Shown here piece after piece: positions 3,466 to 31,431 of a DNA stretch of 64,000 nt. Under the pieces are notes generated by a model. It was not told where the DNA came from, did not search any database, and saw only the letters and a program-made list of their open reading frames with translations. Source of the stretch: an uncultured Gammaproteobacteria bacterium (lineage in GTDB: Bacteria > Patescibacteriota > Microgenomatia > UBA8517 > JACQJR01). The translations under genes and the position numbers were made by a program. Within the stretch, counting starts at the first letter, position 1. Each line of letters begins with the position of its first letter. Location of the stretch: assembly GCA_964442455.1 (NCBI GenBank), contig CAYTZB010000005.1:5152-69151 (forward strand). Reading direction: 5' to 3'.

Positions 3466-5858
3466 TTATTTCTCCTTAAAAAGATAACCAAAAGTAAGAG
3501 TAATGCGACAGAAACACCTGTTATCTTGATACCATTGTAAAAGGAATCTGGTTCGTAGACAAATCTAATCTCATGCTCGCCTGCAGGAACATTAATTGCG
3601 CGAAAAGTATAATTGGCTTTATAAATTTTAGTTTCTATCCCATCAACAAAAGCCTTCCAGCCGGGATACCAAGTTTCGTCCACAAATAGAAATCCATAAA
3701 CGGGCGTTGAAACATTTAAAATGTTTTCCTGCTCTTTATAAGACAAATATTTCACTTCCGATGCAATCCCTTTTGTCAAATTTGTCAAAGTTGACTGTTT
3801 CGCCAAGACAAGTTCACTCAAGAATATTTTCTTGCCGGCTTCAAACTCCGAATCCAGCATTTTCTGCAATATCTTGTCGCTATCACCTTCAGTTTCCCAA
3901 TCAAATACCATAAATGCCCGAGGCAATGCATCTTTATTCTCTAGTACCACAACACTTTTATCCCGAAATACTTCTTTGTACTTCTCAATATCAACTACAC
4001 CCAAGCTACCACCTTTTACCAACACATATTTTGTATTAATTAAAGGAGATTCCCGATTTGTAATAATTCCGTATCTATCTTGTGGCTTAGCACCTGCATC
4101 ATTGCTATTTATAACTCCTATAAATTTTGCCATTTCAAATGGGTAAACCGCATCGTATCCGCTAATGCTCTCAATTTTGTAAGGAATAAATAAGTTTGCC
4201 GGGACAACATTTGCGCCATCAAACCGAAACGGCTGTTTCTGATTTTTCAGAAATTCTATAATTGGAGTTTCTGGATAAACTATATGGCGAGAAACGAAAG
4301 GTGTAAATTTCCAGCCAAAATAAAAAAGTTCTGTTAATAAAATCAAGAAAAACCCGCAAACTACAAGTTGCTTGGGAATTTTCCACTTTGTTAGAAGCAA
4401 AAACGCTATTAATACTCCCACCAAGGAAGCGAATGGCAAAATCAAATTCCTTATTGCAACTTTCTGCTGCCATTCTTCATGAATACCAAAAAATGCATAG
4501 AACAAAAAGCTAAGTAAAATTATAGTTGGTACAAGGATAGAGATTTTAAGAGAAGTCTTTGTGCGGCCCAAAACATAATCCATCCCAATTGCTGCCATTA
4601 AAGAAATTGAAAGCGTGAATAAAACAAGAGCGCGCAACGAAACCCCCGCTTGTATTCCTAGGGGGTTTGTCTGCCAAAGAAAAAGAGAAATTGGTGTGGG
4701 AAAGGCAAGAAGCAAAGATAAGACAGTAAGTAAAATTAAAAATTTAACTTCCTTTTTATCTCTCCACTGGTACAAAGTCAAAAACGCCAAAATTATACTT
4801 ACAACCCCAACAAAACCAACAACAGAGGTGTAATTTTTAGGACCCCAATAGTTACCGGTTGCATGGTTACCAAAAAAATCAGGAGCTAAAAATGTTATAA
4901 CCTGTTCCCATGATAAGAAAGCCCATTCCAAGGGTATCACTTCTCCTACTCTTTGCGAGAGGGACATAAGTTCGTACCCTGGTAGAGCTTGTATGGCTGA
5001 AATTCCCAAGCCCAAAAGAGTAAATATCAAAAGGAGTAATGTCTTTCTCCAAAACTTTCCTGTGCTCCAAAAAACAATGAACCAAAATAAAAAAATTGCG
5101 ATTAATGAATAGAAAACAATCTGCGGATATCCAGAAAAAATTTGAAGTGCCAATACTATAGATAAACCAAAAGCTGTCCAGATGTTGCCAGATCTACCCC
5201 ATCTATCAACTAATAAGATAGCCAGTGGAATAAACGCTGCAGTTAATGCATGCGCATTCCATTGAGACCAAATTAGGTTAAATCCCGAAAAAGCAAAAAT
5301 AATTCCTCCAAAAACAGATGAAGTTTTTGAAATTCCCCAATTCCGCAGAAGTAAATAAGTAAATATTGCTGCCAGTAAATGCTGCAATATAACCTGAAGA
5401 CTCCACCCGGTTAATGTATCGGTTAGAAAATAGACAAAATTGGTTGGAGAAAATGGTGCTGATTGAAAATTGGCAAGAAGTGGCGTACCGGATAAAATAT
5501 AAGGGTTCCAGAGTGGCCATTCGCCATCTTTCATTAAATCAATAGCCAGCATCCGCATAGGAAAACTAAAGGATATCGCGTCAGATGTTATTGGGTTTTT
5601 AACTGATACTCCTGCTGGATAGCCCCAATTATAATCAAGCCAGGGAAAGTAAGCGCCAACTACGACATCTGCCGGAAGAGGAACTTTTTTTTCTAGCCAT
5701 ACTGGATAGAAAAAAACAAGAGGAATAAGGATAAGAAGGATAATTGGGAAAAAATTACGCAGTAATTTTACTAATCTCATATTCGAAACGGTCTTGAGAA
5801 AACTGTTTAGATATCTGTTGGACGATATGAGAAAGTATTTTTCTCCTCTTTTCGTCAT
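3462..5858 (-). CDS. YfhO-family membrane protein (GT-C-like glycosyltransferase)
   Basis: 798 aa. Motif 'WNPYILSGTPLLANFQSAPFSPTNF' is characteristic of the YfhO family. The listed start overlaps the upstream GT1 gene by 104 nt, so the true start is probably the internal Met (MRLVKLL...) near 5780. Confidence 0.65.
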   Translation of the reverse strand: MTKRGEKYFLISSNRYLNSFLKTVSNMRLVKLLRNFFPIILLILIPLVFFYPVWLEKKVPLPADVVVGAYFPWLDYNWGYPAGVSVKNPITSDAISFSFPMRMLAIDLMKDGEWPLWNPYILSGTPLLANFQSAPFSPTNFVYFLTDTLTGWSLQVILQHLLAAIFTYLLLRNWGISKTSSVFGGIIFAFSGFNLIWSQWNAHALTAAFIPLAILLVDRWGRSGNIWTAFGLSIVLALQIFSGYPQIVFYSLIAIFLFWFIVFWSTGKFWRKTLLLLIFTLLGLGISAIQALPGYELMSLSQRVGEVIPLEWAFLSWEQVITFLAPDFFGNHATGNYWGPKNYTSVVGFVGVVSIILAFLTLYQWRDKKEVKFLILLTVLSLLLAFPTPISLFLWQTNPLGIQAGVSLRALVLFTLSISLMAAIGMDYVLGRTKTSLKISILVPTIILLSFLFYAFFGIHEEWQQKVAIRNLILPFASLVGVLIAFLLLTKWKIPKQLVVCGFFLILLTELFYFGWKFTPFVSRHIVYPETPIIEFLKNQKQPFRFDGANVVPANLFIPYKIESISGYDAVYPFEMAKFIGVINSNDAGAKPQDRYGIITNRESPLINTKYVLVKGGSLGVVDIEKYKEVFRDKSVVVLENKDALPRAFMVFDWETEGDSDKILQKMLDSEFEAGKKIFLSELVLAKQSTLTNLTKGIASEVKYLSYKEQENILNVSTPVYGFLFVDETWYPGWKAFVDGIETKIYKANYTFRAINVPAGEHEIRFVYEPDSFYNGIKITGVSVALLLLLVIFLRRNK

Positions 5859-6834
5859 TAATTAATTGGAGCGTCTTCTCAACAAGAGCTTTTTGGGAAT
5901 TCCATAAGAGATTGTCTATAGGTTCAACAAGTATTTCTCTAAAACCCCCTTTATTAACAACAATAGGAATGCACCCTGCTGCCATACTTTCCACAACTGT
6001 AATCCCGAAATGCTCAACCTTTTCTGGCTCTTTTTCCTCATCAACACCAAATCCTGATGCTGACCAAAAAATTTTTGCTCTTGCGTAAAGCGATTTCAAA
6101 TGATTGAAATCTAGGCTTTCAATAATCTCTATTGGGTAACCTCTGGCTTCAAACCTCAAACTTTTAGCAAATTCTTCTCCTCCAATATCGCTTCCTCCTA
6201 CAAGAATAAGCTTCCATCCTTGCAAACCCCCATCAACCATTGTTTTAAATACCGACACTAACACATCTTGCCGTTTTGCTTGAAGGAGCTGGGAAAATCT
6301 TCCAACAGAAAGAATAACATCAGCTTTAGTTTTATGACCCGCCTTGCCGTCGGGCAGGTTTATATCATCGAACTGACCAACATCAACTGGTGGATATATA
6401 ACAACACTATCTACCCCATATTCTTTATCAATAAATTTCTTTGTAAACTTTGAATTACATACAACTTCATAAATTCTTCTTAACTTCAATCGATTAAAAA
6501 GTGATTTTCCTCTCACATTATGAAATGGAACTTGAAAGTGCAGAATATTTTTCTTGGCATATAAGCGTGGAATACTTCCATCTGATAACCAAAAACACAA
6601 ATCATATTCTCTTCCCTTATGAATGCTAGAGACAACTCTCACGCCAGATAAATCTAGCCCCAATCTATCTTCCAGTTTTTTTAATATTCCAGCATCATCC
6701 CATCCTACATCCACCTCCCACCCACTCTTTTTCAAAACGTGAGCAACTGTCATCACATACCGTTCCCCACCACCAAGAGTATCCAAATATGGATTGTAAA
6801 TTGCAGCCCTCATAGCCTTCTTTGCATTTCCCAC
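5755..6834 (-). CDS. Glycosyltransferase family 1 (GT4-type, GT-B fold)
   Basis: 359 aa. C-terminal 'EHFGITVVESMAAGCIPIV' is the classic GT1 E-x7-E region. Confidence 0.75.
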   Translation of the reverse strand: MGNAKKAMRAAIYNPYLDTLGGGERYVMTVAHVLKKSGWEVDVGWDDAGILKKLEDRLGLDLSGVRVVSSIHKGREYDLCFWLSDGSIPRLYAKKNILHFQVPFHNVRGKSLFNRLKLRRIYEVVCNSKFTKKFIDKEYGVDSVVIYPPVDVGQFDDINLPDGKAGHKTKADVILSVGRFSQLLQAKRQDVLVSVFKTMVDGGLQGWKLILVGGSDIGGEEFAKSLRFEARGYPIEIIESLDFNHLKSLYARAKIFWSASGFGVDEEKEPEKVEHFGITVVESMAAGCIPIVVNKGGFREILVEPIDNLLWNSQKALVEKTLQLINDEKRRKILSHIVQQISKQFSQDRFEYEISKITA

Positions 6835-7748
6835 AACTTAGCATACGTTATAAATCTGCTCCATCCTTGATAAATTGAAAAGACAACACCAGGTACTCCA
6901 TCCAAAAATCCTAGTTTTAAAACTAACCGATCAAAAATTTCGCCAATGACCGGACGGAAAAATCTCCACCATGTCATTTTCGGATGACCACTCTCAAGTA
7001 AAAGCCTTGCTTCAATTTCCGACCAGTTGTTCGTTTTCTTAACCATATCTGATAAATTATCTTCTTTTAAATGAATGAAAGGATTCTTAAGATATCCAAT
7101 TTCCCCGTTGATTTTTGGTTGTTCGTGTAGTTCACCTTCCCATTTAATTAGTGCGTCCTTTCTCATAAGTCGTATAACATAATCCGGCCACCAGCCTCCA
7201 TGGTGCAATTCTTTCCCAAAAACAAAATTTCGTCTTGGAATAGCATAAGCTACTATACTAGAGTCGGCGGGTGACACGGGTGGAAGGCCTGCCTGCGCAG
7301 GCAGGGGTCCCGATCCCACTTCGCTCTTCGAGCTTCGAGGGACAAGCACGCTGGTACTGGCGGGCCTGCCAGCCGAAGCTTTAGCGTAGGCGGGAGGGAG
7401 AACCCGGGGCAGGACCCGCCGACCACCCGGGGTAGGACCCCGAGCAATCATTTCCATAATTTCCTCTCTTAACTCTGGAGAAACTCGCTCGTCAGGGTCT
7501 ATATAAAAAAGCCATTCACCTTTTGCTACCTCTTTTCCTTGATTCCTCCAGGTATCAAAACTCCCCGGTTTTTGTCTTATCACACGAGCTTTATACTTCT
7601 TCCCAATCTCAAGTGTTTTATCGGTTGAGCCGCCATCCAACAGAATAATTTCTCCTATCCCTTCCACCAGATGGCGGACAGATTCTAAACATTCAGGTAA
7701 TTTTTCAGCAGCATTTTTTGTAAGAACGACAATTGATATCTGTATCAT
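6810..7748 (-). CDS. GT2-family glycosyltransferase carrying an in-frame GC-rich palindromic insertion
   Basis: N-terminus 'ISIVVLTKNAAEKLPECLESV...ILLDGGSTDKT' and 'DPDE' are the GT2 DxD region. A roughly 57-aa Pro/Ser/Arg/Gly-rich segment (RGPTPGGRRV...PVSPADSS) interrupts the conserved core. Confidence 0.75.
   Translation of the reverse strand: MIQISIVVLTKNAAEKLPECLESVRHLVEGIGEIILLDGGSTDKTLEIGKKYKARVIRQKPGSFDTWRNQGKEVAKGEWLFYIDPDERVSPELREEIMEMIARGPTPGGRRVLPRVLPPAYAKASAGRPASTSVLVPRSSKSEVGSGPLPAQAGLPPVSPADSSIVAYAIPRRNFVFGKELHHGGWWPDYVIRLMRKDALIKWEGELHEQPKINGEIGYLKNPFIHLKEDNLSDMVKKTNNWSEIEARLLLESGHPKMTWWRFFRPVIGEIFDRLVLKLGFLDGVPGVVFSIYQGWSRFITYAKLWEMQRRL
7263..7433. repeat. GC-rich palindromic insertion element (171 bp, divisible by 3) with 10-bp perfect terminal inverted repeats GTCGGCGGGT...ACCCGCCGAC, inserted in-frame in the GT2 gene
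   Basis: The segment is sharply GC-rich within an AT-rich gene. It contains nested palindromes (CCTGCCTGCGCAGGCAGG; CACGGGTGG/CCACCCGG) and a direct repeat CTTCGAG x2. Its termini match the element at 15888-16002. Confidence 0.55.
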
Positions 7749-8698
7749 GGATTAAAACTTCCTTTCCCAAAGTTACCAAAATAATAATCTAACACTCCTC
7801 GCCGCTGCCATGACCGCCCATTGAAAAGAAGACGCGCCGACTCACGAAGTAGCGCAAATCGAGAACGAAGTGGTGCAAAGCGGCTCCCAAAGAGAAGTCG
7901 GTTGCGAGTGATGTAATAATCATTCAACTCACTCCCAATCGCAGAACTTTGCGCAACTTTGTGCCAGAGATAAGCAGATGGAGCATATAAAGTTTTAAAA
8001 CCTGTCATTTTTGCCCTTTGACAAAAATCAGCGTCTTCCCAATATAAAAAATAAGACGGGTCAAGTAGCCCAATTTTTTTAAACACTTCTTTCTTGACGA
8101 ACATACACGCACCGGTCGCAAAATCAGTCTCTGTGGTACTATCGTATTGGCCTTTATCCACTTCATCCACCCCTCGATGGCTTGCCAAAACATTATCCCA
8201 GTTAATCGCTCCCCCCGCATACCATATAACCTTTCCCAACTCTCCCTTCTTATACCTATCTTTGTGGAACTCAAAACCTTTGTAAAAATAAATTTTAGGG
8301 GAAATTATGCCAGCATGCGGGTTATTCTCTGCTGTTTTAATCAATTGAACTATTAAATTCTTATCTGTAATCGTATCGTTATTAAGAAGTACCACGTAAT
8401 CGGCATAGTCTTTTAATGCCGCTTTTATGCCCATATTATTCCCTTCCGAAAACCCTAGGTTATTTTTGTTTTCAATTAATTGAAATTTCGTGGAAAATTT
8501 TGCAAGTGTACGTAAATTTTCAACCGACCCATCAGTTGAACCATTATCAACAACAATAGTTTTGAGTTCTGAGTTTTGCCGTGCGTCGCCAAAGGCTATG
8601 CCGGCGGCGCGAGTTCTGAGTTTTGCAATGCTATCCAAGCATTGCAACGTATCTTCTTTCCCATTCCAATTAAGAATAACAATTGATACTTTTTTCAT
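7745..8698 (-). CDS. GT2-family glycosyltransferase
   Basis: 317 aa. 'VSIVILNWNGKEDTLQCLDSI...IVVDNGSTDGS' is the GT2 motif. It contains a short GC-rich insert (RTRAAGIAFGDARQNSE). Confidence 0.75.
   Translation of the reverse strand: MKKVSIVILNWNGKEDTLQCLDSIAKLRTRAAGIAFGDARQNSELKTIVVDNGSTDGSVENLRTLAKFSTKFQLIENKNNLGFSEGNNMGIKAALKDYADYVVLLNNDTITDKNLIVQLIKTAENNPHAGIISPKIYFYKGFEFHKDRYKKGELGKVIWYAGGAINWDNVLASHRGVDEVDKGQYDSTTETDFATGACMFVKKEVFKKIGLLDPSYFLYWEDADFCQRAKMTGFKTLYAPSAYLWHKVAQSSAIGSELNDYYITRNRLLFGSRFAPLRSRFALLRESARLLFNGRSWQRRGVLDYYFGNFGKGSFNP
8564..8626. repeat. 31-bp GC-rich insert flanked by a perfect 16-bp direct repeat (GAGTTCTGAGTTTTGC) inside the GT2 CDS
   Basis: 8564-8579 and 8611-8626 are identical. 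Between them lies cgtgcgtcgccaaaggctatgccggcggcgc, with imperfect palindromic ends GCGTCGCC/GGCGGCGC. It sits between the conserved CLDSI and IVVDNGS motifs. Confidence 0.5.
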
Positions 8699-8797
8699 TT
8701 TGAGCCCTGCGAAAAAACAAGCTCCGCTTATTTTGAGCCCTGCGAAAAAACAAGCTCCGCTTATTTTGAGCCCTGCGAAAAAACAAGCTCCGCTTAT
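8699..8797. repeat. Perfect 33-bp tandem repeat x3 (TTTGAGCCCTGCGAAAAAACAAGCTCCGCTTAT), followed by a hairpin CCGCTTA-tcgggt-TAAGCGG
   Basis: Three identical copies at 8699-8731, 8732-8764 and 8765-8797. The array starts immediately 5' of the ATG of GT2 gene 7745..8698 and contains the stop codon of 8794..9687. Confidence 0.9.
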
Positions 8798-13069: not shown

Positions 13070-13200
13070 GTAGCATTATTTCGAGCGTCAGCGAAAAACA
13101 AGCTCTGCTTATTTCGAGCAAAGCGAGAAACAAGGTTCTGTGTAAAGCACAGGTTCTTATTTCGAGCTTACGAGAAACAAGGTTCTACGCGAAGCGTAGG
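13070..13200. repeat. Degenerate array of three copies of the same repeat family seen at 8699-8797 (TATTTCGAGC-N-GCGAAAAACAAGCTCTGCTTAT...)
   Basis: Copy 1 'tatttcgagcgtcagcgaaaaacaagctctgcttat' aligns to 'ttttgagccctgcgaaaaaacaagctccgcttat'. Copies 2-3 are more diverged and carry hairpins CTGTG-taaag-CACAG and CTACGC-gaa-GCGTAG. The array lies immediately 5' of the flippase ATG. Confidence 0.7.
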
Positions 13201-13203
13201 TTA

Positions 13204-14688: not shown

Positions 14689-16533
14689 CTACATTCTAGC
14701 ACGCGAAAGCCGTTTCCTCCACCATGGAAGAGTAATAAGTATTCCCCAAGAAACAAGAGAAATTAAATTTCCAGCAGTGCGGGGAAAAGTATTATAGAGT
14801 TTGGCGTAAATTTCGTGCTCGCCTTCTTTAACGGTTATGTGCATTCGGCCTAACTCGTCATCATCTCCGGTAATTTCTGTTTCTTCCCCATCAATAAAAA
14901 CTCGCCAATTTGGAAATTGAAAAATATTTATTCTTGCTTTAGCACTTTCGCTTTCAATGGCAATTTTAAATTTCGCCCAGTTTGTTCCTTCACTAGTATC
15001 TGAAATATCACCCTCACCGCTCGTTATTTCGGCCAATGTAGTTCTTGGTCCTTGAGGCGCAATTCTTGATGTTTTTGGGAGATAATCATAAATCCCAGCC
15101 GTTTGTTGAAGCTCCCACGCAGCATTTGCAAATTTCTCTTCATCAGTTAAAGGACCCATGCGATAAGGCTTGAAGTAGTCTTTGTTAAACAACATCACTG
15201 TAACCAAAAGTATGACAACTAAAACTAATGTCCACCTACGCTTTCCATTAAGAAGCGGAACGAGCGCACCTATAACAAATGAAAAAGAAAGGATTACAAT
15301 TGTTAAAAATCGCCAAGGAAACTGAACAATAGAAAGGAATGGTAAGGCAAGCCAAATGGGGGTTGAACGCACATGGGCCATAAAGGCGGTGGCGAAGCCG
15401 AAAGTTAGCATGTAGCTTATGGCCAGTAGCGAATTGGTAGAAATTTTTCCTTTTCTTGCTAATTTAACCAGTACTAACGAACCTATAACTAATGCCAAAA
15501 TCCAGTGTATATGCCCAATTTGGAATGACATTCCGTCATTCTCCCCCCATACCGATGGTCCATAACCCCAAAATCGAGAAAAAAACAATTGATTAATATC
15601 TGCAAAATGGGCAATGTATTCATAATATCCTTGTGTGAGTGTATCGACGTGTACCAATCTCTGCTCGAGTATCACCGGAATGCTAAAAAATGCTGCCAAC
15701 CCAAATGCCCAAATCCCTGAAATTAAAAGTTGGGGGATTCTACTCCACGCATACCCTCTATACAACCAAAGTAAACACCAAATAGCAAACACAGGCGTGA
15801 AGATAAGCACCATAACATTGTGCGACAATAAAAGCGCCGCCCAAGAGAGCGCTAAAATAACAATCCATCTTAAATTTAATAGTAAAAGCGACGGGTGACG
15901 CGAGCGGAGGGAGTCCCACCGAGCGCCCGCAACCCGCCCAGACTGCTCGACTGTTGGCGGGGAGGACGTCGGGTGGGACGAGCGAGCGGCAGGACCCGTC
16001 GCAATAACCTTTTCAGCAATCAACTTAAAACTTGCCCACAAAATTAGCGGAACCCAGGCCAGCGCCCACGCCTCATTCATTGCTCCCCGCACATACACGT
16101 CAACCGCGTGATATGGCGCCCACACATAAAATACACTCGATAGTACCCCGCCAAGCCTGCCCCAAAATTCGCGCGCTAAAATATACATCGTTACTGCGGA
16201 CAACACGAAACTCAAGAAAAAGGTGAGCTTCACCGTCGTAATAAAAGAAACGCCTGTGAGCCTTATCACCTGCCCTACCAAATAGGGAAGTGGCGGATAG
16301 TAGTTAAAGAGTGGAAACCCATACCCATAACCCATATCCGGTACCCAACGGCAGGGGATTTGTAAATCTCGGAAGCACTTCTCCATCTCAAGTTGGCGCA
16401 TCATCTGTAAGTCATCATGCATGTTGAAGTATCCTGATGTGAGTAACACGCGACCCGCAAGAAATCCTAAAAACACTACCAAGATAATGGGCCAAAAATT
16501 AGAGAGACTCGTAATCCTTCGCAAGAATTTCAT
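14689..16533 (-). CDS. GT-C-like membrane protein (PTPS-related/'HDD-loop' family). Paralog of 60082..61755. Carries an in-frame GC-rich insertion.
   Basis: 614 aa. 'YFNMHDDLQMMRQLEMEKCFRDLQIPCRWVPDMGYGYGFPLFNYYPPLPY' parallels 'FTAHDIWHQVARFYHY...FGYPLFFFSYPLPW' of 60082..61755. The insertion encodes TGPAARSSHPTSSPPTVEQSGRVAGARWDSLRSRHP. Confidence 0.55.
   Translation of the reverse strand: MKFLRRITSLSNFWPIILVVFLGFLAGRVLLTSGYFNMHDDLQMMRQLEMEKCFRDLQIPCRWVPDMGYGYGFPLFNYYPPLPYLVGQVIRLTGVSFITTVKLTFFLSFVLSAVTMYILAREFWGRLGGVLSSVFYVWAPYHAVDVYVRGAMNEAWALAWVPLILWASFKLIAEKVIATGPAARSSHPTSSPPTVEQSGRVAGARWDSLRSRHPSLLLLNLRWIVILALSWAALLLSHNVMVLIFTPVFAIWCLLWLYRGYAWSRIPQLLISGIWAFGLAAFFSIPVILEQRLVHVDTLTQGYYEYIAHFADINQLFFSRFWGYGPSVWGENDGMSFQIGHIHWILALVIGSLVLVKLARKGKISTNSLLAISYMLTFGFATAFMAHVRSTPIWLALPFLSIVQFPWRFLTIVILSFSFVIGALVPLLNGKRRWTLVLVVILLVTVMLFNKDYFKPYRMGPLTDEEKFANAAWELQQTAGIYDYLPKTSRIAPQGPRTTLAEITSGEGDISDTSEGTNWAKFKIAIESESAKARINIFQFPNWRVFIDGEETEITGDDDELGRMHITVKEGEHEIYAKLYNTFPRTAGNLISLVSWGILITLPWWRKRLSRARM
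15888..16002. repeat. GC-rich palindromic insertion element with 9-bp TIR GCGACGGGT...ACCCGTCGC. Same family as 7263-7433.
   Basis: Both elements share a left end '(C)GGGTGAC(R)CG' and a right end 'GCAGGACCCG(Y)CG'. The segment is GC-rich inside an AT-rich CDS and the reading frame is maintained. Confidence 0.5.
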
Positions 16534-18164
16534 GGTTGTTCTTCCTCCTCTGGGAGAATTAACGCGGATGGCGTAAACTCAAATAAATAGAGGTAATCTC
16601 TTTCTCCATACCAAATGTACTCATGGGTATCAGTTCTTGCTCTTTTGGCTTTTGGATAAGATGCTACAACTTTAAGCCCCAGCTTTTCTCCTACCTCAAT
16701 AGCTCTCTGGGCATCCCTCTCAAACCTCTTCAACATTCTAGAGCTATTGAAAACTAGGTACACAGTATCCCCCGCTCTTTTTGCATTTTTCAACGACTCT
16801 GGCATTTCTTTTATTATAATTCCCACACCAATAACCGTAACATTTGGAACATTCTCTAAGTATATTTGAAGACCGTCAGGAAGTGTACCAAAAAATCCTT
16901 CAGTTCCAACCACAATTCGCTCGTCAGGGCGAGACGCTTTTTTCTCTTTGATAAACTCTGCTACTTCCCTAATCCCCGTCCCTGCAGTCCACTCTTCTAA
17001 ATATCCCGACCGTTCGCTTTGGGGCAAGGGTGCAGCTTCAGGATTAGTTAAAAATAAATAATCCGCTCTCACAGCATTTGCTAAAAAGATAAGCAGTCCC
17101 GCTATAAAGATTTTTTGATATATCTTGTTTTTTGGCAAAACCGAAGCAGCCGCAAGAGTAACTAAAAATGGAATAGAAAAAAGGATATAGCGAGCGGTAA
17201 TAACTTTCGCGAATTCTGCTTGGGCAAGGAGCGGTAGGAATGCCCACGCGGCAAGAACGAGAGTATAACGTAGATAAATTTTGCTACCAATCACGACTCC
17301 CGCGATGACCAAAAATACCAAGACGCTCGGGCCTAATATAAACAACCACTCGCGAATTCTATCGATATAGAAAATAAACGGGTCTTTGGGATTCGTCCAC
17401 AGATGGCTCAAAGGAAACACATAATCCTTATTGCGTTCTCCAATCAAGCCAAAATTGGGGCCAAGACGAAGAATATTGTACATCGCATAGCCCACGGCAT
17501 AGGTAACCCCGAACAAGCCAACAAATTTGATAATATTCAAAAAGCTCACTTTTACACTATTGCCCGTTTTCTTAAGAAATGGTGCAAGAAGAGCGGTCAC
17601 CGGCAAAAGGAGTGAGAAAAATAATGCCGGGGATTTGGTCAAAAGCGCACCACCCAACCAGAACCCTGTCAAAATGGCAGTATCAAGCCGCAAGGCTCTC
17701 GCCGTCACAAAACCGAAAAGGAGCGTCCATACACCAAACATTGAAAGCATCGAGTCAACCAGCGCCATCCTGTCAAAAAACACAGCAAACGGTGAGGCAG
17801 TGTACAATAAGCCTGCAACAACTGCACCTCTTGTTGAGCGGAAAAGATACCACGCAAGAAGCACTACTCCTACAAGTGTTCCAAACCCGGTAACCACCGA
17901 AACCATTCTTCCTGCAACAAGCGGGTCCGAGAAAATCTTAAGAAAAGGAATAATTGACCACATAAAAAGAGGTTGTTTCCCGTCAGAGAGCGGAAGGAAA
18001 CGAAGTGTAGGCTCATGTTGCATCACCTGCGCCCACCGAATATAAATCGCCTCGTCAACAAAAACAGGAATTTTCGTCAGATTCGGGACTCTAAGGAGAA
18101 AATAAAGAACAATAATTGCCAAACCGGCGATTATTGTAAATTTGTATTTGGCAAATATCTTCAC
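16530..18164 (-). CDS. GT39/ArnT-like GT-C membrane glycosyltransferase
   Basis: 544 aa. 'IPVFVDEAIYIRWAQ' is the DE motif in the first periplasmic loop. Multi-TM N-terminal domain plus a soluble C-terminal domain. Confidence 0.7.
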   Translation of the reverse strand: MKIFAKYKFTIIAGLAIIVLYFLLRVPNLTKIPVFVDEAIYIRWAQVMQHEPTLRFLPLSDGKQPLFMWSIIPFLKIFSDPLVAGRMVSVVTGFGTLVGVVLLAWYLFRSTRGAVVAGLLYTASPFAVFFDRMALVDSMLSMFGVWTLLFGFVTARALRLDTAILTGFWLGGALLTKSPALFFSLLLPVTALLAPFLKKTGNSVKVSFLNIIKFVGLFGVTYAVGYAMYNILRLGPNFGLIGERNKDYVFPLSHLWTNPKDPFIFYIDRIREWLFILGPSVLVFLVIAGVVIGSKIYLRYTLVLAAWAFLPLLAQAEFAKVITARYILFSIPFLVTLAAASVLPKNKIYQKIFIAGLLIFLANAVRADYLFLTNPEAAPLPQSERSGYLEEWTAGTGIREVAEFIKEKKASRPDERIVVGTEGFFGTLPDGLQIYLENVPNVTVIGVGIIIKEMPESLKNAKRAGDTVYLVFNSSRMLKRFERDAQRAIEVGEKLGLKVVASYPKAKRARTDTHEYIWYGERDYLYLFEFTPSALILPEEEEQP

Positions 18165-20127: not shown

Positions 20128-20167
20128 TTGGTTACTGGGTTACTGGGTTACTGGGTTACTGGGTAAC
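20128..20167. repeat. 8-bp tandem repeat TGGGTTAC x5 (3 perfect and 2 variant copies)
   Basis: Sequence is ttggttac tgggttac tgggttac tgggttac tgggtaac. It encodes the last 8 codons and the stop of 20140..21744, and lies 1-40 nt upstream of the ATG of GT2 19363..20127. Confidence 0.85.
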
Positions 20168-21744
20168 CTATGTCTCCTCTCTACCGTTATTCCTCCGAAC
20201 TTCACCTCTTTTTCAACTTTACCAATATTTTCCTGCCTCGCCAACCATGCGTCTAGCCTCTCGGGATGAGGTGGATCAACCTCATAGAGGGTATAGAGAA
20301 GTGGCACGTGCTCCTCTTTCGGCACTATCCCATATATTGTTGTTCCCCGCCACAAAAACAAATAATCGTAGGCATATGGGATTACCGGCGGGACATAAGA
20401 GTCAACATTAAAAGGAGTATTACCAGTATCTTCGTAAACCCAGTTAACTGCTTGTTTTTGGTTACCAAAAGCAATAGTATTTTGGCCGTCTACCCCTGAA
20501 GTTATATAACTTTGGATAACTGGAACATTAGTCTGCAAAAAAAGGTATAAAAAAATACCTAAAATAATTTTGCCAAACAAGGTATTGACAATAGTCGTTA
20601 ACAGAACAGAAAACAACAAAATAAAAATTAAATAGTATCCTGTAAAGTAATAGTCATAAATATTACCGTAATTACCCTGGAAGAAAAGCATTCCGGCAAG
20701 TGGGGAGAGGAAAATAATAAGTAATGTAACAAATTTCTGATTTGCAAAAAAAATCTTTCTGTTTATAATCAAAACTCCAAGTGAAATAATTCCAAATATA
20801 AATCCGTAATTTTTATAACTCATAAAAAGCTTTGAATTAAAAACATCAAAGTAAAAAAACAACCTTTGTCTGGCTACTTCCCAAAATGAACCCTTAAAAT
20901 TACCATCTCCAATTAAAAATTTAGCAATTCCAGATCTTAATATTCCATCATGGCGCAGGTCAAAAATTATTTGCGGTAAGAATGGAATAACCAAAGCAAT
21001 AACAAATAAAATCCAAATTTTCAAATCTGGCAAATTTTTCTTTTGCCCGCTTCGCGAGGCGAGCCAGATTGCAAAAACTAAAACAGCAGGAAAATAAAAA
21101 ACTTCAGCTGCTGAACCAAATTGCATTGCAAATCCTAGCATAAGTCCAGTAATAACCCATCCCCACCGTTTGCCTTTTATAATTAAAAATAAAGAAAGTA
21201 CAAGCAACATGCTAATAAGAAGCATTGGTGTTGGATTTGATAGCCAACGTGAGGCATAAACCAACTGAAAAGAAAATGTAGAAATTATAGCAGCAACAAG
21301 CCCTGTTAATCTTCCCGATACCATTACTCCGAGGATATAAATAAGTAAACTTGCAACAACGGTGGTAAAAGACAAGAATACTGATGGCCAAACTGGATTT
21401 CCGTTCCCTAATAAATAAAAAGGGGCAATCAACCAATAGTACCAAGGGCCGCGAAAAATTCCTTCTATTCCAGTTGTCGGCCCGATAAGGAAAAATTTAC
21501 CCTTATGCCACAAATCCCAAATGACAAGCGCATCTCTTCCTTGGTCATAATAAAACCCAAGGAGATTATCAATTCTCCAAACTCTCACCAAAAAAGCACC
21601 TAGAAGAATTATTGACAAAATTAGATATATTCTCGAGTGAGTCAATATCTCAGCTCTCAAACCGCTCAGCCATCGTCTCGTTCTTGTTACACTGTTATCC
21701 TGAAAGGACAAGCTCTGCTTACGTAGGGGTATAAGATTAGCCAT
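20140..21744 (-). CDS. GT-C/ArnT-like membrane glycosyltransferase (paralog of the 1..983 gene)
   Basis: 534 aa. 'YYDQGRDALVIWDLWHKGKFFLIGPTTGIEGIFRGPWYYWLIAPFY' matches the 1..983 product. The N-terminal 35 aa is uncertain: a degenerate copy of the intergenic repeat (aaaggacaagctctgcttacg) overlaps 21700-21725. Confidence 0.55.
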   Translation of the reverse strand: MANLIPLRKQSLSFQDNSVTRTRRWLSGLRAEILTHSRIYLILSIILLGAFLVRVWRIDNLLGFYYDQGRDALVIWDLWHKGKFFLIGPTTGIEGIFRGPWYYWLIAPFYLLGNGNPVWPSVFLSFTTVVASLLIYILGVMVSGRLTGLVAAIISTFSFQLVYASRWLSNPTPMLLISMLLVLSLFLIIKGKRWGWVITGLMLGFAMQFGSAAEVFYFPAVLVFAIWLASRSGQKKNLPDLKIWILFVIALVIPFLPQIIFDLRHDGILRSGIAKFLIGDGNFKGSFWEVARQRLFFYFDVFNSKLFMSYKNYGFIFGIISLGVLIINRKIFFANQKFVTLLIIFLSPLAGMLFFQGNYGNIYDYYFTGYYLIFILLFSVLLTTIVNTLFGKIILGIFLYLFLQTNVPVIQSYITSGVDGQNTIAFGNQKQAVNWVYEDTGNTPFNVDSYVPPVIPYAYDYLFLWRGTTIYGIVPKEEHVPLLYTLYEVDPPHPERLDAWLARQENIGKVEKEVKFGGITVERRHRLPSNPVTQ

Positions 21745-23942
21745 TATGGTTTCCCGCTTGGATTATGTACAAGTCTGTATAATTTTACCCCTGCCACGTC
21801 CCACTCTTTGTCAATCTTAGACCAACCAAAAACCGTAATTTCTGCCTTGGGATTATGTGTCGGGTCACACTTTTCTTGAGGTAACTCACATACAACAAAT
21901 AATTGCTCAGCAACTGTTTCCTCATATTTTAGAGGGTCTATATCTCTTACTGGTTCTTTCCACCACTCAAGGAAATACTGATAAGCATCTTCATAATTTC
22001 GCTCGGCCAAGACAGCCAAATTAAATGTTTGGCCTTTTGCTTCCTGCACAATCTTTGCTGCCACCTCTCCCGTCCTCTGAAGTTGCCTTTGGGGAGGATT
22101 CTTGATTGGTGTCATGGAAAGGTTAAGTAGTATCAAAAACACTAAAGCAGCGAACAGTAAAAAGTTTGTAATTTGTAATTTGTAATTTGTAATTTCTTGG
22201 GCTAACATGCCCAACAAAAAAAATGGTATCACAAACATAAATCCAAAATAGTGGTCGTAGATATTTTGTTTTAAAAGTGCCATACCGCTTAAACCGAACC
22301 CCACCCAAACAAGGAGGAGGAAAGAGGGTGACTGGAAGAATGTTTGGCGCTGTTTGGCTACAATCCAAAATGTACCTATAAGGGTAACCACGGCAATGAA
22401 TCTTCCCCACAATTCGTTCATTGCACCAACCAAACGTGTCATCTCTTGCTGGAACAATGGCCACAGTTCTGGAATTGCATTCCAAGGACGAGCAGAAACA
22501 GTGGCTTGCCGCTCGGTAAAGAAAATACGCATTGCCTCAAAATTGCGCCAACCATGGCGGGCATCGAAGATAACGAGAGGAGACATGAGTAGCGCAAAAA
22601 GCGCTGAGGCGATGAGAGTATAGAGGATGAATTTTCCATTTATTTTCGAATTTCTAATTTTTTGAAATGTCAGAAGCCAGAATAGTCCAATCGTTGGAGC
22701 AAGAAGTAGACCAAGATAATGAGACTGTAACACAAACGCATACGACACACCTAAAACTAAAAGCCACTTCCACTCGTGGTGTTTCCATACACGCCACACT
22801 GAATAAATAGACAAAAGAGCAAAAAAGGGCATGATATTAGGATTCCAAGAGGAGCGAGAATAGGTAATCACAACTGGTGAAACTGCATACAAACTTGCGG
22901 CAACAACCGCCGCTACTTTTCCAAACCACTCCCTGCTAACCCACCAAACAAATCCGGTAGTAGCGACTCCGAGAGCAGCAACTTGCGCTACGGGGCCAAC
23001 TGGGGAAAGACGAAAAAGAAAAAGTGCCGGTGCAATCAGGTAATAATAAAGGGGTCCCAGATACATATTGCCAATAGAGGTACCCGGGCCGACTAAAATA
23101 GGGTCGAAGTCAACGAGGAGACGCCGCACCACAATCGCATCCCTTCCTTCGTCTCCCAGAAAAGTCATATACTCTGATAATCGATAAAATCGAAGAAACG
23201 CACCAACGATTAAAATTGTGAGTAAGGCAAAAAATTCAAGTTTCGGCAAGAATTTCCACCAAATTTTAAAAAGATCGATGTAAGACTGTATTATTACTTT
23301 TATATTAGCTCCCGTAGGTCTGCCAGCAAGACGTGGATAATGGTTAACTCCCACCTCAACAACGTTAAACCCAAATTTTTTAGCCTTTACTGCAAGTTCT
23401 GCATTAATCATTCCTCCCCGTTTCGACTCAAGATGTGGAATCTGCTCGAGCACTCTTTTTTTAACCATCTTAAAGCCGCAATCAACATCCCGAAGTTTCA
23501 GTCCAAAAAGGGTAAATAAGGATAAAGCCCACCCTTTTGCAAAAAGAAGTCTAAAAAATGGGTCTTGCCTTTTAATCCTGTATCCAATAATCAAATCGGC
23601 GGTATCTAATTTTTCTATAAATTTTGAACTTTCTGAAAAATCAAATTGCCCATCAGAATCGGTATACGCAATTACATCGTAGCGGGCGTTATAAAATCCT
23701 GACTTTAAAGCCTCACCATAACCTAAGTTTTCCTTATGATTAATAACTCTAATCCTATCATCCTGTTTACTTAGTTCTCGTGCTATCTCACCTGTTTTAT
23801 CGGTTGAGCCATCATTAATAATAATGACTTCCCACTGTGCCGCAACTTTTTTAAGGACACCGATTGAGCTTTTTACTGTACGTTCTAAATTTGCTTCTTC
23901 GTTATAAGCAGGGAAGAAGACAGAGAGCGCGCTGATTTTCAT
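21744..23942 (-). CDS. Bifunctional fusion: N-terminal GT2 (DPM1-like) plus C-terminal GT-C/ArnT-like membrane domain
   Basis: 732 aa. The N-terminus 'FFPAYNEEANL...IIINDGSTDKT...TDSDGQ' is GT2. From about residue 230 the protein is polytopic, with 'FLGDEGRDAIVVRRL...GPLYYYLIAP' resembling the other GT-C paralogs. Confidence 0.7.
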   Translation of the reverse strand: MKISALSVFFPAYNEEANLERTVKSSIGVLKKVAAQWEVIIINDGSTDKTGEIARELSKQDDRIRVINHKENLGYGEALKSGFYNARYDVIAYTDSDGQFDFSESSKFIEKLDTADLIIGYRIKRQDPFFRLLFAKGWALSLFTLFGLKLRDVDCGFKMVKKRVLEQIPHLESKRGGMINAELAVKAKKFGFNVVEVGVNHYPRLAGRPTGANIKVIIQSYIDLFKIWWKFLPKLEFFALLTILIVGAFLRFYRLSEYMTFLGDEGRDAIVVRRLLVDFDPILVGPGTSIGNMYLGPLYYYLIAPALFLFRLSPVGPVAQVAALGVATTGFVWWVSREWFGKVAAVVAASLYAVSPVVITYSRSSWNPNIMPFFALLSIYSVWRVWKHHEWKWLLVLGVSYAFVLQSHYLGLLLAPTIGLFWLLTFQKIRNSKINGKFILYTLIASALFALLMSPLVIFDARHGWRNFEAMRIFFTERQATVSARPWNAIPELWPLFQQEMTRLVGAMNELWGRFIAVVTLIGTFWIVAKQRQTFFQSPSFLLLVWVGFGLSGMALLKQNIYDHYFGFMFVIPFFLLGMLAQEITNYKLQITNFLLFAALVFLILLNLSMTPIKNPPQRQLQRTGEVAAKIVQEAKGQTFNLAVLAERNYEDAYQYFLEWWKEPVRDIDPLKYEETVAEQLFVVCELPQEKCDPTHNPKAEITVFGWSKIDKEWDVAGVKLYRLVHNPSGKP
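22165..22192. repeat. Heptanucleotide tandem repeat TTTGTAA x4 inside the CDS of 21744..23942
   Basis: Four perfect copies. On the coding strand this reads (AAATTAC)n and encodes ...EITNYKLQITN.... The unit length is not a multiple of 3. Confidence 0.85.
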
Positions 23943-23969
23943 ATCAGTTTATGATACTATGAAAAAGGT

Positions 23970-25127
23970 ATGCGACTCAACGAAAGAGTACTCCATATTC
24001 TTATTATCGCAGCTGCCACCCTCATCCCTCCCATCCTTGTGTGGGCACCCTTTTTCATACGAATGCCTTCCTTTTGGGGAATAAAGCTACCTCAAGAGGG
24101 AATGGCAACGGTAATCGCTAACTTTGACGGCCCTTATTATATTGTGGTGGCAAAAACCCTCTATAACACTAATGCTTTAGGACAATTTGAATTTCCTCTT
24201 CCCAAAGAATATTATGCTGCTCATTTTCCGGCCTTTCCACTCCTCATTCGTGCATTCTCTCCTCTTTTTGGATATCCATGGGCAATGATGGTTGTAACAC
24301 TCCTCTCTTCTTTAGTGGCGCTCGTGCTGTTTTATCTACTCCTCCGACAGGTAGGACCCAAAACTCACGCACTATGGCTAACATTGGTATTTGCAATTTT
24401 CCCTGCTCGGTGGTTAATTGTCCGTTCAATCGGTTCTCCCGAACCCCTTTTCATAGCAGCAGTTCTGGCGACTTTTTATTTCCTCTTACGAGGAAATTAT
24501 TGGGCAACGGGTATCGCGGGTGCTATCGCAATGTTTACTAAATCTCCAGGGATTTTACTCTTTGCCGCACTCGCCGCCGCACTCGCCGCACCACACATTC
24601 ATAATCTTTTTATTCATCCAATGAGTACTTTTAGAAAGCTTTTACCCAAGGGTTTACCGCTTCTCTTTATTCCTGCCGCAGTTTTGCTGGTGTTTGCCTG
24701 GTATGCACGCGCGTATGGCGACTTTTTCGCATATTTTCATTCCGGGGACAATATCCATCTTCTCTTTCCCCCTTTCCAAGTATTCAATACTGCACAAGCC
24801 TGGGTTGGAACATTTTGGCTTGATGAAATAATCTGGATTTACCTTTTCGGATTTTTGGGAGTATTTCAATTAATTAAAAATAAGCTGTATCCATTTGCAT
24901 GGTTTGTGGGAATATTTTTCGCCTCAACCCTATTTGTCTCTCATAGAGATATCGCTCGTTATATCCTCCCAATTGTTCCATTTTTATTTATCGCTTTTTC
25001 TGACGTTCTCACCAGTCGCCCTTTCAGATGGGCACTTGCACTCCTTTTACTCCCCATTTATCTGTCCGCGCTCAATTTTATTATCGGAAATGTCACTCCA
25101 ATTGCCGACTGGAGACCACTGTTGTAA
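23970..25127 (+). CDS. Polytopic membrane protein, putative GT-C-type glycosyltransferase
   Basis: 385 aa, about 10 TM. Divergently transcribed from the GT2-GT-C fusion gene, with only 27 bp between the two start codons. Confidence 0.45.
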   Translation: MRLNERVLHILIIAAATLIPPILVWAPFFIRMPSFWGIKLPQEGMATVIANFDGPYYIVVAKTLYNTNALGQFEFPLPKEYYAAHFPAFPLLIRAFSPLFGYPWAMMVVTLLSSLVALVLFYLLLRQVGPKTHALWLTLVFAIFPARWLIVRSIGSPEPLFIAAVLATFYFLLRGNYWATGIAGAIAMFTKSPGILLFAALAAALAAPHIHNLFIHPMSTFRKLLPKGLPLLFIPAAVLLVFAWYARAYGDFFAYFHSGDNIHLLFPPFQVFNTAQAWVGTFWLDEIIWIYLFGFLGVFQLIKNKLYPFAWFVGIFFASTLFVSHRDIARYILPIVPFLFIAFSDVLTSRPFRWALALLLLPIYLSALNFIIGNVTPIADWRPLL

Positions 25128-31147: not shown

Positions 31148-31393
31148 TTACAAAAGCAGGCTTATTATAATAATACTCCCCAACAGCGCAATACCCACAT
31201 ATTCTACCACAACTTCAAAATATAAGTCATCGTGAAGGAAGTGGTGTACAATTCCCCAAGTAACGTACGAAACAGCCAGAGCAATAATCAATGCGATTTG
31301 AAAATTTTTATCCCAGGAAAAAACACTGAAGCCAACAAGCGCTATAGCAAAAAGCCCAAAAAGAACAAGATAGTGTGAAAAACGACGAGCCAT
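31148..31393 (-). CDS. Small membrane protein (2-3 TM), hypothetical
   Basis: 81 aa, hydrophobic. Starts 3 nt from the heptamer repeat. Confidence 0.4.
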   Translation of the reverse strand: MARRFSHYLVLFGLFAIALVGFSVFSWDKNFQIALIIALAVSYVTWGIVHHFLHDDLYFEVVVEYVGIALLGSIIIISLLL

Positions 31394-31395
31394 TT

Positions 31396-31423
31396 AAATT
31401 GAAAATTGAAAATTGAAAATTGA
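31396..31423. repeat. Heptanucleotide tandem repeat AAATTGA x4 in the 5'UTR/RBS region of 31148..31393
   Basis: Four perfect copies, immediately adjacent to the start codon and downstream of the stop of the CAP-domain gene. Confidence 0.85.
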
Positions 31424-31431
31424 AAATTTAA

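Follow-up and report, generated by a model that had tools for sequence, protein, structure and literature searches.

Does a short tandem repeat that lies exactly between two glycosyltransferase genes act as a switch of surface glycosylation, or is it a microsatellite that both genes tolerate? This question is raised by an octanucleotide repeat in the window, i.e., the whole stretch of 64,000 nucleotides analysed here, where a GT-C membrane glycosyltransferase gene is followed by a GT2 gene. A first-pass annotation had described an SSR that covers the GT-C stop and adjoins the GT2 start within a surface-glycan cluster, a placement that is correct as the TAA codon (20142-20140) lies inside the tract, and had recognized in it the classic architecture of a contingency locus. 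In the following, the anatomy of the tract, the consequences of a change in copy number, and its state in the same strain and in relatives are considered before the possible explanations are weighed.

Anatomy of the repeat and its genetic context

On the forward strand, positions 20128-20167 read TTGGTTAC TGGGTTAC TGGGTTAC TGGGTTAC TGGGTAAC, that is, three perfect units and two end units with one mismatch in each. The repeat described in the first-pass annotation is therefore real, although the five copies given there are reached only by counting the two imperfect end units, the perfect copies amounting to 4.4; the statement that its unit length is not divisible by three is borne out by the period of 8 found by TRF. 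On the coding (minus) strand, the tract has the form GGTTAC(CCAGTAAC)x4 CAA ATG, and the junction, divided into codons, reads ...AGA CAT AGG TTA C(CC AGT AAC)(CCA GTA AC)(C CAG TAA C)(CC AGT AAC) CAA ATG GCC. With its period of 8 and 4.4 copies, the tract is of the perfect kind, with a unit of 1-9 nt, that is expected of an SSR contingency locus. A 24-nt probe of three units has a single match site, which is the tract at 20128-20167, whereas 0.00 sites are expected from 100 dinucleotide shuffles, and the 8-bp repeat at the GT-C/GT2 junction is real and non-random. As had been proposed from the beginning, the repeat encodes the last eight codons of the GT-C gene (LPSNPVTQ*). The perfect tract stops 2 nt short of the GT2 ATG (20127-20125), and the spacer between the GT-C stop and this ATG measures 12 nt. 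The features of the locus are collected in Table 1.

Table 1. Positions of the octanucleotide tract, of neighbouring genes and of further SSRs in the window.
Feature	Position	Strand	Evidence
Extended tract with an imperfect unit at each end (TTGGTTAC, TGGGTAAC on the + strand)	20128..20167	-	sequence
Perfect 8-bp tandem tract, 4.4 copies	20130..20164	-	TRF: period 8, 100% matches, score 70
TAA stop of the GT-C gene, in the third repeat unit	20140..20142	-	ORF list, copy-number model
12-nt intercistronic spacer (CCCAGTAACCAA), i.e., fourth unit plus CAA, lacking a Shine-Dalgarno motif	20128..20139	-	
GT-C/PMT_2 membrane glycosyltransferase gene, 534 aa	20140..21744	-	PF13231 PMT_2, E 9.5e-10, 39.3 bits vs cut-off 26.1
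GT2 gene, 254 aa	19363..20127	-	Glycos_transf_2, E 4.6e-23 (Pfam)
732-aa GT2 + PMT_2 fusion gene, first gene of a probable operon	21744..23942	-	
Promoter-like site TTGAGT-18-TATCAT shortly before the 732-aa gene	23951..23980	-	consensus match only
Second SSR, (TTACAAA)x4.4, in frame in the 732-aa gene (EITNYKLQITNF)	22165..22195	-	TRF
Third SSR, (TTTTCAA)x4.7	31396..31428	-	TRF

The first 32 kb of the window constitute a cell-surface glycan cluster with several PMT_2 genes and further GT2 genes, one each of YfhO, GT1 and Wzx-like genes, and then an NTP-transferase gene and an epimerase gene in succession to these. The GT-C and GT2 genes are preceded by the gene for a 732-aa fusion protein, whose TAA stop overlaps the GT-C ATG as TAATG. 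In a consensus scan, the promoter-like site in front of the 732-aa gene is the only one positioned to drive the three-gene unit, and promoter-like or terminator-like sites were found at neither of the two junctions between the three genes, for which reason an internal promoter or terminator at the GT-C/GT2 junction was rejected. NCBI lists the GT-C gene in a 482-aa version as “glycosyltransferase family 39 protein” (P0001, 100% identity); an exact look-up of the 534-aa protein gives no match, the NCBI start call being shorter, and neither does that of the 732-aa protein, of which the version in a metagenome-assembled genome (MAG) differs at one residue. The start of the GT2 gene at 20127-20125 is confirmed by conserved N-termini in relatives, i.e., MAKMYLS, MTKIYLS, MSKIYLS, and MKPYLS.

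In a phmmer search of the PDB, the nearest solved relative of the GT2 protein is the dolichol-phosphate mannose synthase (DPMS) of Pyrococcus (5mlz, 1.6e-12), followed by the GtrB-like sll0501 (5eke, 1.3e-11) and ArnC (2.6e-10), and its NCBIfam matches are all far under the equivalog cut-offs. In view of these similarities, the GT2 protein probably acts as a polyprenyl-phosphate sugar synthase and provides a lipid-linked donor. GT-C enzymes take sugars from such lipid-linked donors. Therefore, as a GT2 homologous to DPMS, GtrB or ArnC stands next to a transferase of GT-C fold, the two genes plausibly encode a two-step module in which GT2 would synthesize the donor and GT-C would transfer the sugar. 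No GtrA-like flippase was identified beside the pair; Pfam gives no hit for the downstream ORFs of 137 and 168 aa and NCBIfam no significant one, and a Polysacc_synt_3 (Wzx-like) gene is located 7 kb from the pair.

Consequences of a change in copy number

The locus was rebuilt in silico with 0 to 8 units, and the GT-C and GT2 ORFs were read out each time. With three units, the GT-C product is the identical 534-aa protein ending in ...RLPSNPVTQ* and the spacer to the GT2 start is 4 nt; the four units of the window and models with five or six units yield the same 534 aa with spacers of 12, 20, and 28 nt, respectively. From three to eight units the GT-C product stays the same, and the GT2 ORF is intact at all copy numbers modelled. 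With 0 or 2 units, GT-C runs on past the GT2 start in a different reading frame, and with one unit an in-frame GT-C-GT2 fusion of 785 aa results, no spacer being left in any of these cases. As 8 mod 3 is 2 and each unit carries a TAA, the GT-C frame meets a stop in unit 3, and therefore both proteins are unchanged at any copy number of at least three. ON/OFF switching is impossible at three or more units. The expectation that slippage would alter the C-terminus and the stop of GT-C is thus contradicted by the identical product at three or more units, whereas the accompanying expectation of an altered spacing in front of GT2 agrees with the model. A step of one unit, which at a contingency locus alters expression, here leaves both ORFs constant and changes the spacer only, and the consensus scan shows no promoter-like site within the tract or upstream of it at the junction.

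The tract had also been taken for the ribosome-binding region of GT2, which is not supported by its sequence: GGAG, GAGG or AGGA is absent from the 40 nt before the GT2 ATG. Shine-Dalgarno-like motifs at 4-17 nt from the longest-ORF start precede only about 6 of the 48 ORFs of the window, and a Shine-Dalgarno site within the tract was rejected, the motif being missing there and rare throughout the window. Many starts in the window are situated a few nucleotides past TATAAT-like boxes, which suggests leaderless transcripts or very short leaders, and many further starts share bases with the stop before them (ATGA or TAATG). GT-C and GT2 show the sequence features expected of a translationally coupled pair: they are on the same strand, their adjacency is conserved, they overlap or are separated by a short spacer in relatives and, as judged from consensus scans, GT2 has neither a Shine-Dalgarno site nor a promoter of its own. 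The efficiency of reinitiation drops with greater distance between termination and start. The distance between termination and reinitiation would be the only lever left to a copy-number change at the tract and, since Shine-Dalgarno sites are rare and genes are packed with ATGA or TAATG overlaps, we infer that the stop-to-ATG distance could modestly change reinitiation on GT2.

The tract in the same strain and in related genomes

Assemblies of the same strain were fetched by exact look-up of the GT2 protein and hence independently of copy number. The locus is present in the NCBI MAG GCA_016182755.1 (contig JACPFY010000013.1, here L166; protein annotated as “Candidatus Microgenomates bacterium”), which is 99.96% identical to the window with 2 SNPs in 4523 nt, and in five Logan contigs (SRR12113383, -384, -420, -422, and -430). 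Judging by accession and isolate names, the samples would stem from a groundwater MAG series. Four units are found in all six same-strain assemblies that can be compared, i.e., the window, the MAG contig, and the Logan contigs L001-L004, representing at least five sequencing runs, although these sequences are a consensus from low-coverage samples in which minority alleles are invisible. The inspection of strain variants that the first-pass annotation had recommended therefore leans toward refutation of a contingency locus: at consensus level no polymorphism of copy number is seen within the strain, and a difference of three versus four units exists between species. The fifth Logan contig (L005) begins within the tract, the MAG contig breaks off 62 nt beyond the GT2 ATG, and both breaks could be an effect of minority alleles. 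The positions at which Logan contigs end inside SSRs agree with a k=31 branch model no more closely than 1-2 nt and were not used as evidence of allele mixtures.

The comparison of related genomes, which had been recommended as well, shows that units have been gained or lost over evolution, relatives having three, the window four, and two lineages other units. The gene order GT-C-GT2 recurs in many Microgenomates-like loci, and in 11 of the 15 relatives examined stop and start overlap as ATGA directly past a conserved FGGITVQERERI... motif. L171 (GT-C identity 65%) has no tract and ends in ...RHRL* with such an overlap. L167 (72%) carries GGTTGC and three perfect CCAGTAAC units with a 4-nt spacer and the same C-terminus as in the window, L168 (64%) three degenerate units with a 4-nt spacer, and L086 (74%) three degenerate units plus one extra G, so that the tract is read in another frame (VTQQPSNPVTK*) and ends in an ATGA overlap. 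L169 and L170 (both 64%) have GCAATGAA x3 and AATAAGTC AGTAAGTC AATAA, respectively; their units are different, yet the 8-bp period at the junction is kept, which fits repeated turnover of the unit. Spacers of 3-4 nt in L167, L168, and L170 contrast with the 12 nt of the window. In a multiple alignment, the window has exactly one 8-nt unit more than L167, L086, and L168; we conclude that three units are the common state and that the fourth unit of the window is a single added step.

The units of the window and of L167 are both perfect despite flanking regions of 300 nt that are only 80-88% identical, which could reflect selection or homogenization through ongoing slippage. Beyond the conserved FGGITVxRRxR[ILF], the C-termini of Microgenomates-type GT-C homologues (P0001-P0060) vary between 0 and 14 residues of differing sequence, and on account of this spread the site of the tract appears permissive and the tail unconstrained. 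Altogether, the comparison supports the view that the tract is a genuine and old product of slippage, whose units resemble each other within a lineage and differ from one lineage to another. Slow turnover of units is indicated by the divergence at which changes become visible, the GT-C proteins of the lineages concerned having 64-74% identity to that of the window, and by decay through point substitution in two of these lineages. Several of the closest species-representative genomes are labelled Candidatus Daviesbacteria, with GT2 identities of up to 63%, and genome, metagenome contig, and protein searches found no relatives between 100% and 83% (GT2) or 74% (GT-C) identity, so that the strain-level comparison is confined to one population.

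Other repeats in the window and in its relatives

The octanucleotide tract is not the only SSR of this lineage; the two further perfect SSRs of the window (Table 1) have a comparable total length. In the model, gain or loss of one unit in the (TTACAAA) tract truncates the 732-aa protein near residue 600. The L086 orthologue of this gene, 87% identical to that of the window, contains a 14-nt x2.8 repeat exactly at the site of the (TTACAAA) tract and, at another site, an (AATTGGA)x4.3 tract by which its protein is 7 residues longer at window residue 434 (SSRs at 2362-2391 and 2822-2862 of L086); all differences in length between the two orthologues fall at these two SSR sites. In another GT-C paralogue of L086, the orthologue of window gene 16530..18164, an (ATCAAAA)x4.3 tract is situated in frame at 6891-6920 and replaces a stretch of similar length, FIKEKKASRPDERIV in the window versus YIKNQKSKIKNGERIV in L086. 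In GT-C genes of this lineage, the same sites repeatedly carry lineage-specific repeats of 7, 8, and 14 nt. In these consensus sequences, all coding tracts were seen in a frame-preserving state, which fits both a high slippage rate filtered by selection and phase variation.

Between the stop of a CAP-domain gene (331 aa) and the ATG (31393) of a membrane ORF of 81 aa (31148..31393), the gap is taken up by the (TTTTCAA) tract, whose layout, an SSR followed by AA-ATG-GC, is the same as that at the GT-C/GT2 junction. All Logan contigs that reach this tract (L172-L176, from 4-5 runs) end or start inside it, and these breaks could be due to heterogeneity of copy number, to shared k-mers or to the behaviour of the assembler. 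In a scan for perfect SSRs, the window and L086 contain 6 tracts in 76 kb whereas other Microgenomates-like loci contain 7 in about 590 kb. With this approximately 7-fold higher density, the lineage evidently generates such repeats with ease, for the most part within GT-C genes or next to them.

Larger repeats occur in the window as well. At 8697-8797 (minus strand), a 33-nt unit, AAGCGGAGCTTGTTTTTTCGCAGGGCTCAAAAT, occupies a whole intergenic gap in 3.1 perfect copies, the last of which provides the ATG of gene 7745..8698, and at 13108-13202 (minus strand) a second intergenic gap contains copies that have diverged (GAGCTTGTTTTTCGC...GCTCGAAATAA), arranged as a 47-nt x2 repeat; these repeats make up a dispersed intergenic element. 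Outside the Microgenomates, acidobacterial GT2 homologues (40-44% identity) have perfect heptamer tracts whose end lies no more than about 100 nt ahead of the GT2 start (L040, L053, L056, L075, L123, and L153, at about 5820-5998 and in L053 at 1-124). The units are (CTCAGTT) in 4 to 18 copies, (CTGAGAG)x12 or (CTGAGAA)x12, and they sit upstream of a TACAAT box or between this box and the start. Many other loci of GT2 homologues contain two-copy remnants, e.g., ACTGAGA, and of the two Chloroflexia/Chloroflexota loci, one contains 5 heptamer tracts and the other 2. Including L037 and L038, it looks as if SSRs were recurrently associated with this GT2 family across phyla.

Discussion

Known SSR contingency loci have their tract in the 5′ coding region, are frameshifted ON or OFF by each unit, and usually comprise 5 to more than 30 copies, which differ between isolates (PMC6321876, PMC2651432). 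In Campylobacter, the PhasomeIt cut-off for longer units is 5 or more copies (PMC6321876), and the 4.4 copies of the tract in the window remain below this value, which as a Campylobacter cut-off is indicative only here. Like the tetranucleotide tracts of the H. influenzae lic/LOS loci and the poly-G tracts of Campylobacter, the tract is a perfect repeat made by slippage in a glycosyltransferase operon, with a unit length indivisible by three. It differs from them by its location at the 3′ end of a gene, by a stop in every third unit and hence the lack of a frameshift, and by its 4.4 copies that show no polymorphism within the strain among consensus assemblies. The assignment to the classic contingency-locus architecture therefore fails with regard to the expression step, the length of the tract, and strain-level polymorphism.

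In its position upstream of a start codon, the tract resembles the heptanucleotide tracts of H. influenzae hmw1A/hmw2A and the T-tract of H. pylori sabA, and the octanucleotide ATTATTTG, present in 1-6 copies between cmkB and pdxS of H. influenzae, is another rheostat-type SSR outside coding regions. With such SSRs it shares a unit of 7-8 nt and a copy number that shifts spacing and would grade expression rather than switch it. Rheostat SSRs are reported to act via promoter geometry or 5′-UTR processing (PMC2651432; PMC12721329, PMC4081817). In contrast, the tract in the window is intra-operonic and lies between a stop and a start, with the coupling distance as the sole plausible lever. Nevertheless, by this comparison it seems closer in logic to the rheostat SSRs (hmw, sabA) than to the classical contingency loci. 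In Helicobacter canadensis, SSRs near the 3′ ends of genes are reported to switch the C-terminal sequence (PMC2823697); there, as here, the SSR would be in the last codons of a gene and the C-terminus changeable in principle, but in the window it changes only under three units.

Modules of the GtrB/GtrC type are phase-variable in Salmonella through an epigenetic switch involving Dam/OxyR methylation. The window pair is similar in combining a DPMS/GtrB/ArnC-related GT2 with an adjacent GT-C/PMT_2 protein, in an order that is conserved in many Microgenomates-like relatives. It differs in that the GT2 protein, with 254 aa, is about 70-120 residues shorter than its solved relatives (322-374 residues), in that no GtrA-like flippase was identified beside the pair, and in that the mechanism proposed is an SSR instead of methylation.

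Which explanation accounts best for the tract? An artefact of assembly or sequencing has virtually no likelihood: contig ends of L005 and L166 lie near the tract and indicate some trouble of the assembler nearby, but the window, an independent NCBI MAG, and four Logan contigs of separate runs share the identical tract, which effectively refutes this reading, and homologous tracts exist in four other lineages. It is also very improbable that the tract is kept for a functional C-terminal peptide LPSNPVTQ of GT-C, with the DNA periodicity being incidental. P0002 (72% identity overall) shares the tail RLPSNPVTQ and P0005 has a similar one (RLPNNLITQ), but L086, the closest relative, reads the tract DNA in another frame, L169 and L170 have unrelated tails (MSNEAMKQ and INKSVSQ), and most homologues are tail-less; the frame switch in L086 and the wide variation of the tail led to the rejection of this peptide. 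A cis-acting element, either a GGUUAC-GUAACC hairpin masking the GT2 start or an array of protein-binding sites, is scarcely to be expected either. GGTTAC and GTAACC are reverse complements, so that a sliding 6-bp stem is possible and is used by the minimum-free-energy fold. Against such an element, the fold of -13.3 kcal/mol does not stand out from a shuffle mean of -14.3 (z = 0.34), the centroid is unpaired in the tract, Rfam gives no match at E up to 1, GGTTAC is not conserved (GGTTGC in L167, missing in L169 and L170), and no DNA-binding gene is associated with the tract site; an RNA element was rejected on the grounds of the fold and the Rfam search.

More weight has to be given to a working “rheostat” contingency locus, although we regard it as unlikely. 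Frequent and reversible 8-bp steps would tune GT2 relative to GT-C and diversify the surface glycan, and the resulting glycan diversity in the population could be of use in defence against phage, for instance, or in attachment to a host. Several observations speak for it: a perfect SSR with a unit that is not a multiple of three sits exactly at the stop and start of a functionally linked pair of glycosyltransferases, copy number and unit sequence vary between lineages while the 8-bp period is constant, and coupling distance should matter where Shine-Dalgarno sites are rarely used. The second layout of an SSR followed by AA-ATG at 31396-31428, where all Logan contigs break, the additional, frame-sensitive repeats of 7 and 14 nt in GT-C genes of the lineage, and the approximately 7-fold denser SSRs in or beside GT-C genes, as expected of a phase-variable gene set, point in the same direction. 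Also, SSRs in promoters or 5′ UTRs are reported to grade expression in H. influenzae hmw and H. pylori sabA (PMC2651432; PMC4081817, PMC12721329). Against it stand the copy number below the PhasomeIt cut-off, the four units in all six same-strain assemblies from at least five runs despite retrieval independent of copy number, the slow turnover indicated by a three-unit state that has lasted in lineages with only 64-74% GT-C identity to the window and is decayed by substitution in two lineages, and the lack of an ON/OFF outcome with three or more units. Moreover, the term “translational coupling” is absent from the 12 papers that rank highest in the literature on phase variation and repeat tracts. 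That the 7-8-nt repeats of the GT-C glycosylation cluster make up a phase-variable gene set, in which the octanucleotide tract is a switch of a new kind, we consider a decidedly long shot. If this were true, both enzymes would stay intact while copy number would grade donor synthesis by GT2 relative to GT-C via the coupling distance; an SSR would then control translational coupling instead of a reading frame or promoter spacing, in an episymbiont-type bacterium of the Candidate Phyla Radiation (CPR) and with a stop codon in every third unit.

The explanation that we favour, and hold to be reasonably probable, is that slippage gave rise to an octanucleotide microsatellite at the junction of a translationally coupled gene pair and that this repeat is tolerated, with a weak modulatory effect at most. 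Ancestrally, the stop of GT-C and the start of GT2 would have overlapped as ATGA. An 8-bp-periodic tract of about three units would have arisen past the conserved ...RRxR[L/I] codons in a subclade of Microgenomates near Daviesbacteria, and the strain of the window would then have added one further unit. Tolerance may be explained by the stop met in unit 3, which keeps both proteins constant from three units on, and by the location of the tract in a C-terminal tail that varies widely. Gain or loss of units would change the stop-to-ATG distance alone, from 4 nt with three units to 12 nt with four and 20 nt with five. The lineage-specific units, the difference of three versus four, and the invariance of both proteins are plain from the alignments and ORFs, and it is for GT2 translation that an effect is inferred.

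The full-text literature search returned no paper on SSR-based phase variation in CPR bacteria among its top matches. If the tract varied within populations, it would be the first indication found of SSR phase variation in a CPR bacterium, and the lever would be an unusual one, i.e., the coupling distance that separates two enzymes acting in a single glycosylation pathway. On the present evidence, the tract is mainly a worked example of how a microsatellite arises and persists at a gene junction with both genes unharmed, because the stop codon recurs every third unit, and it illustrates that an SSR beside a glycosyltransferase gene is insufficient for calling a contingency locus. The wider SSR pattern of this lineage may merit more attention than the single octanucleotide tract.
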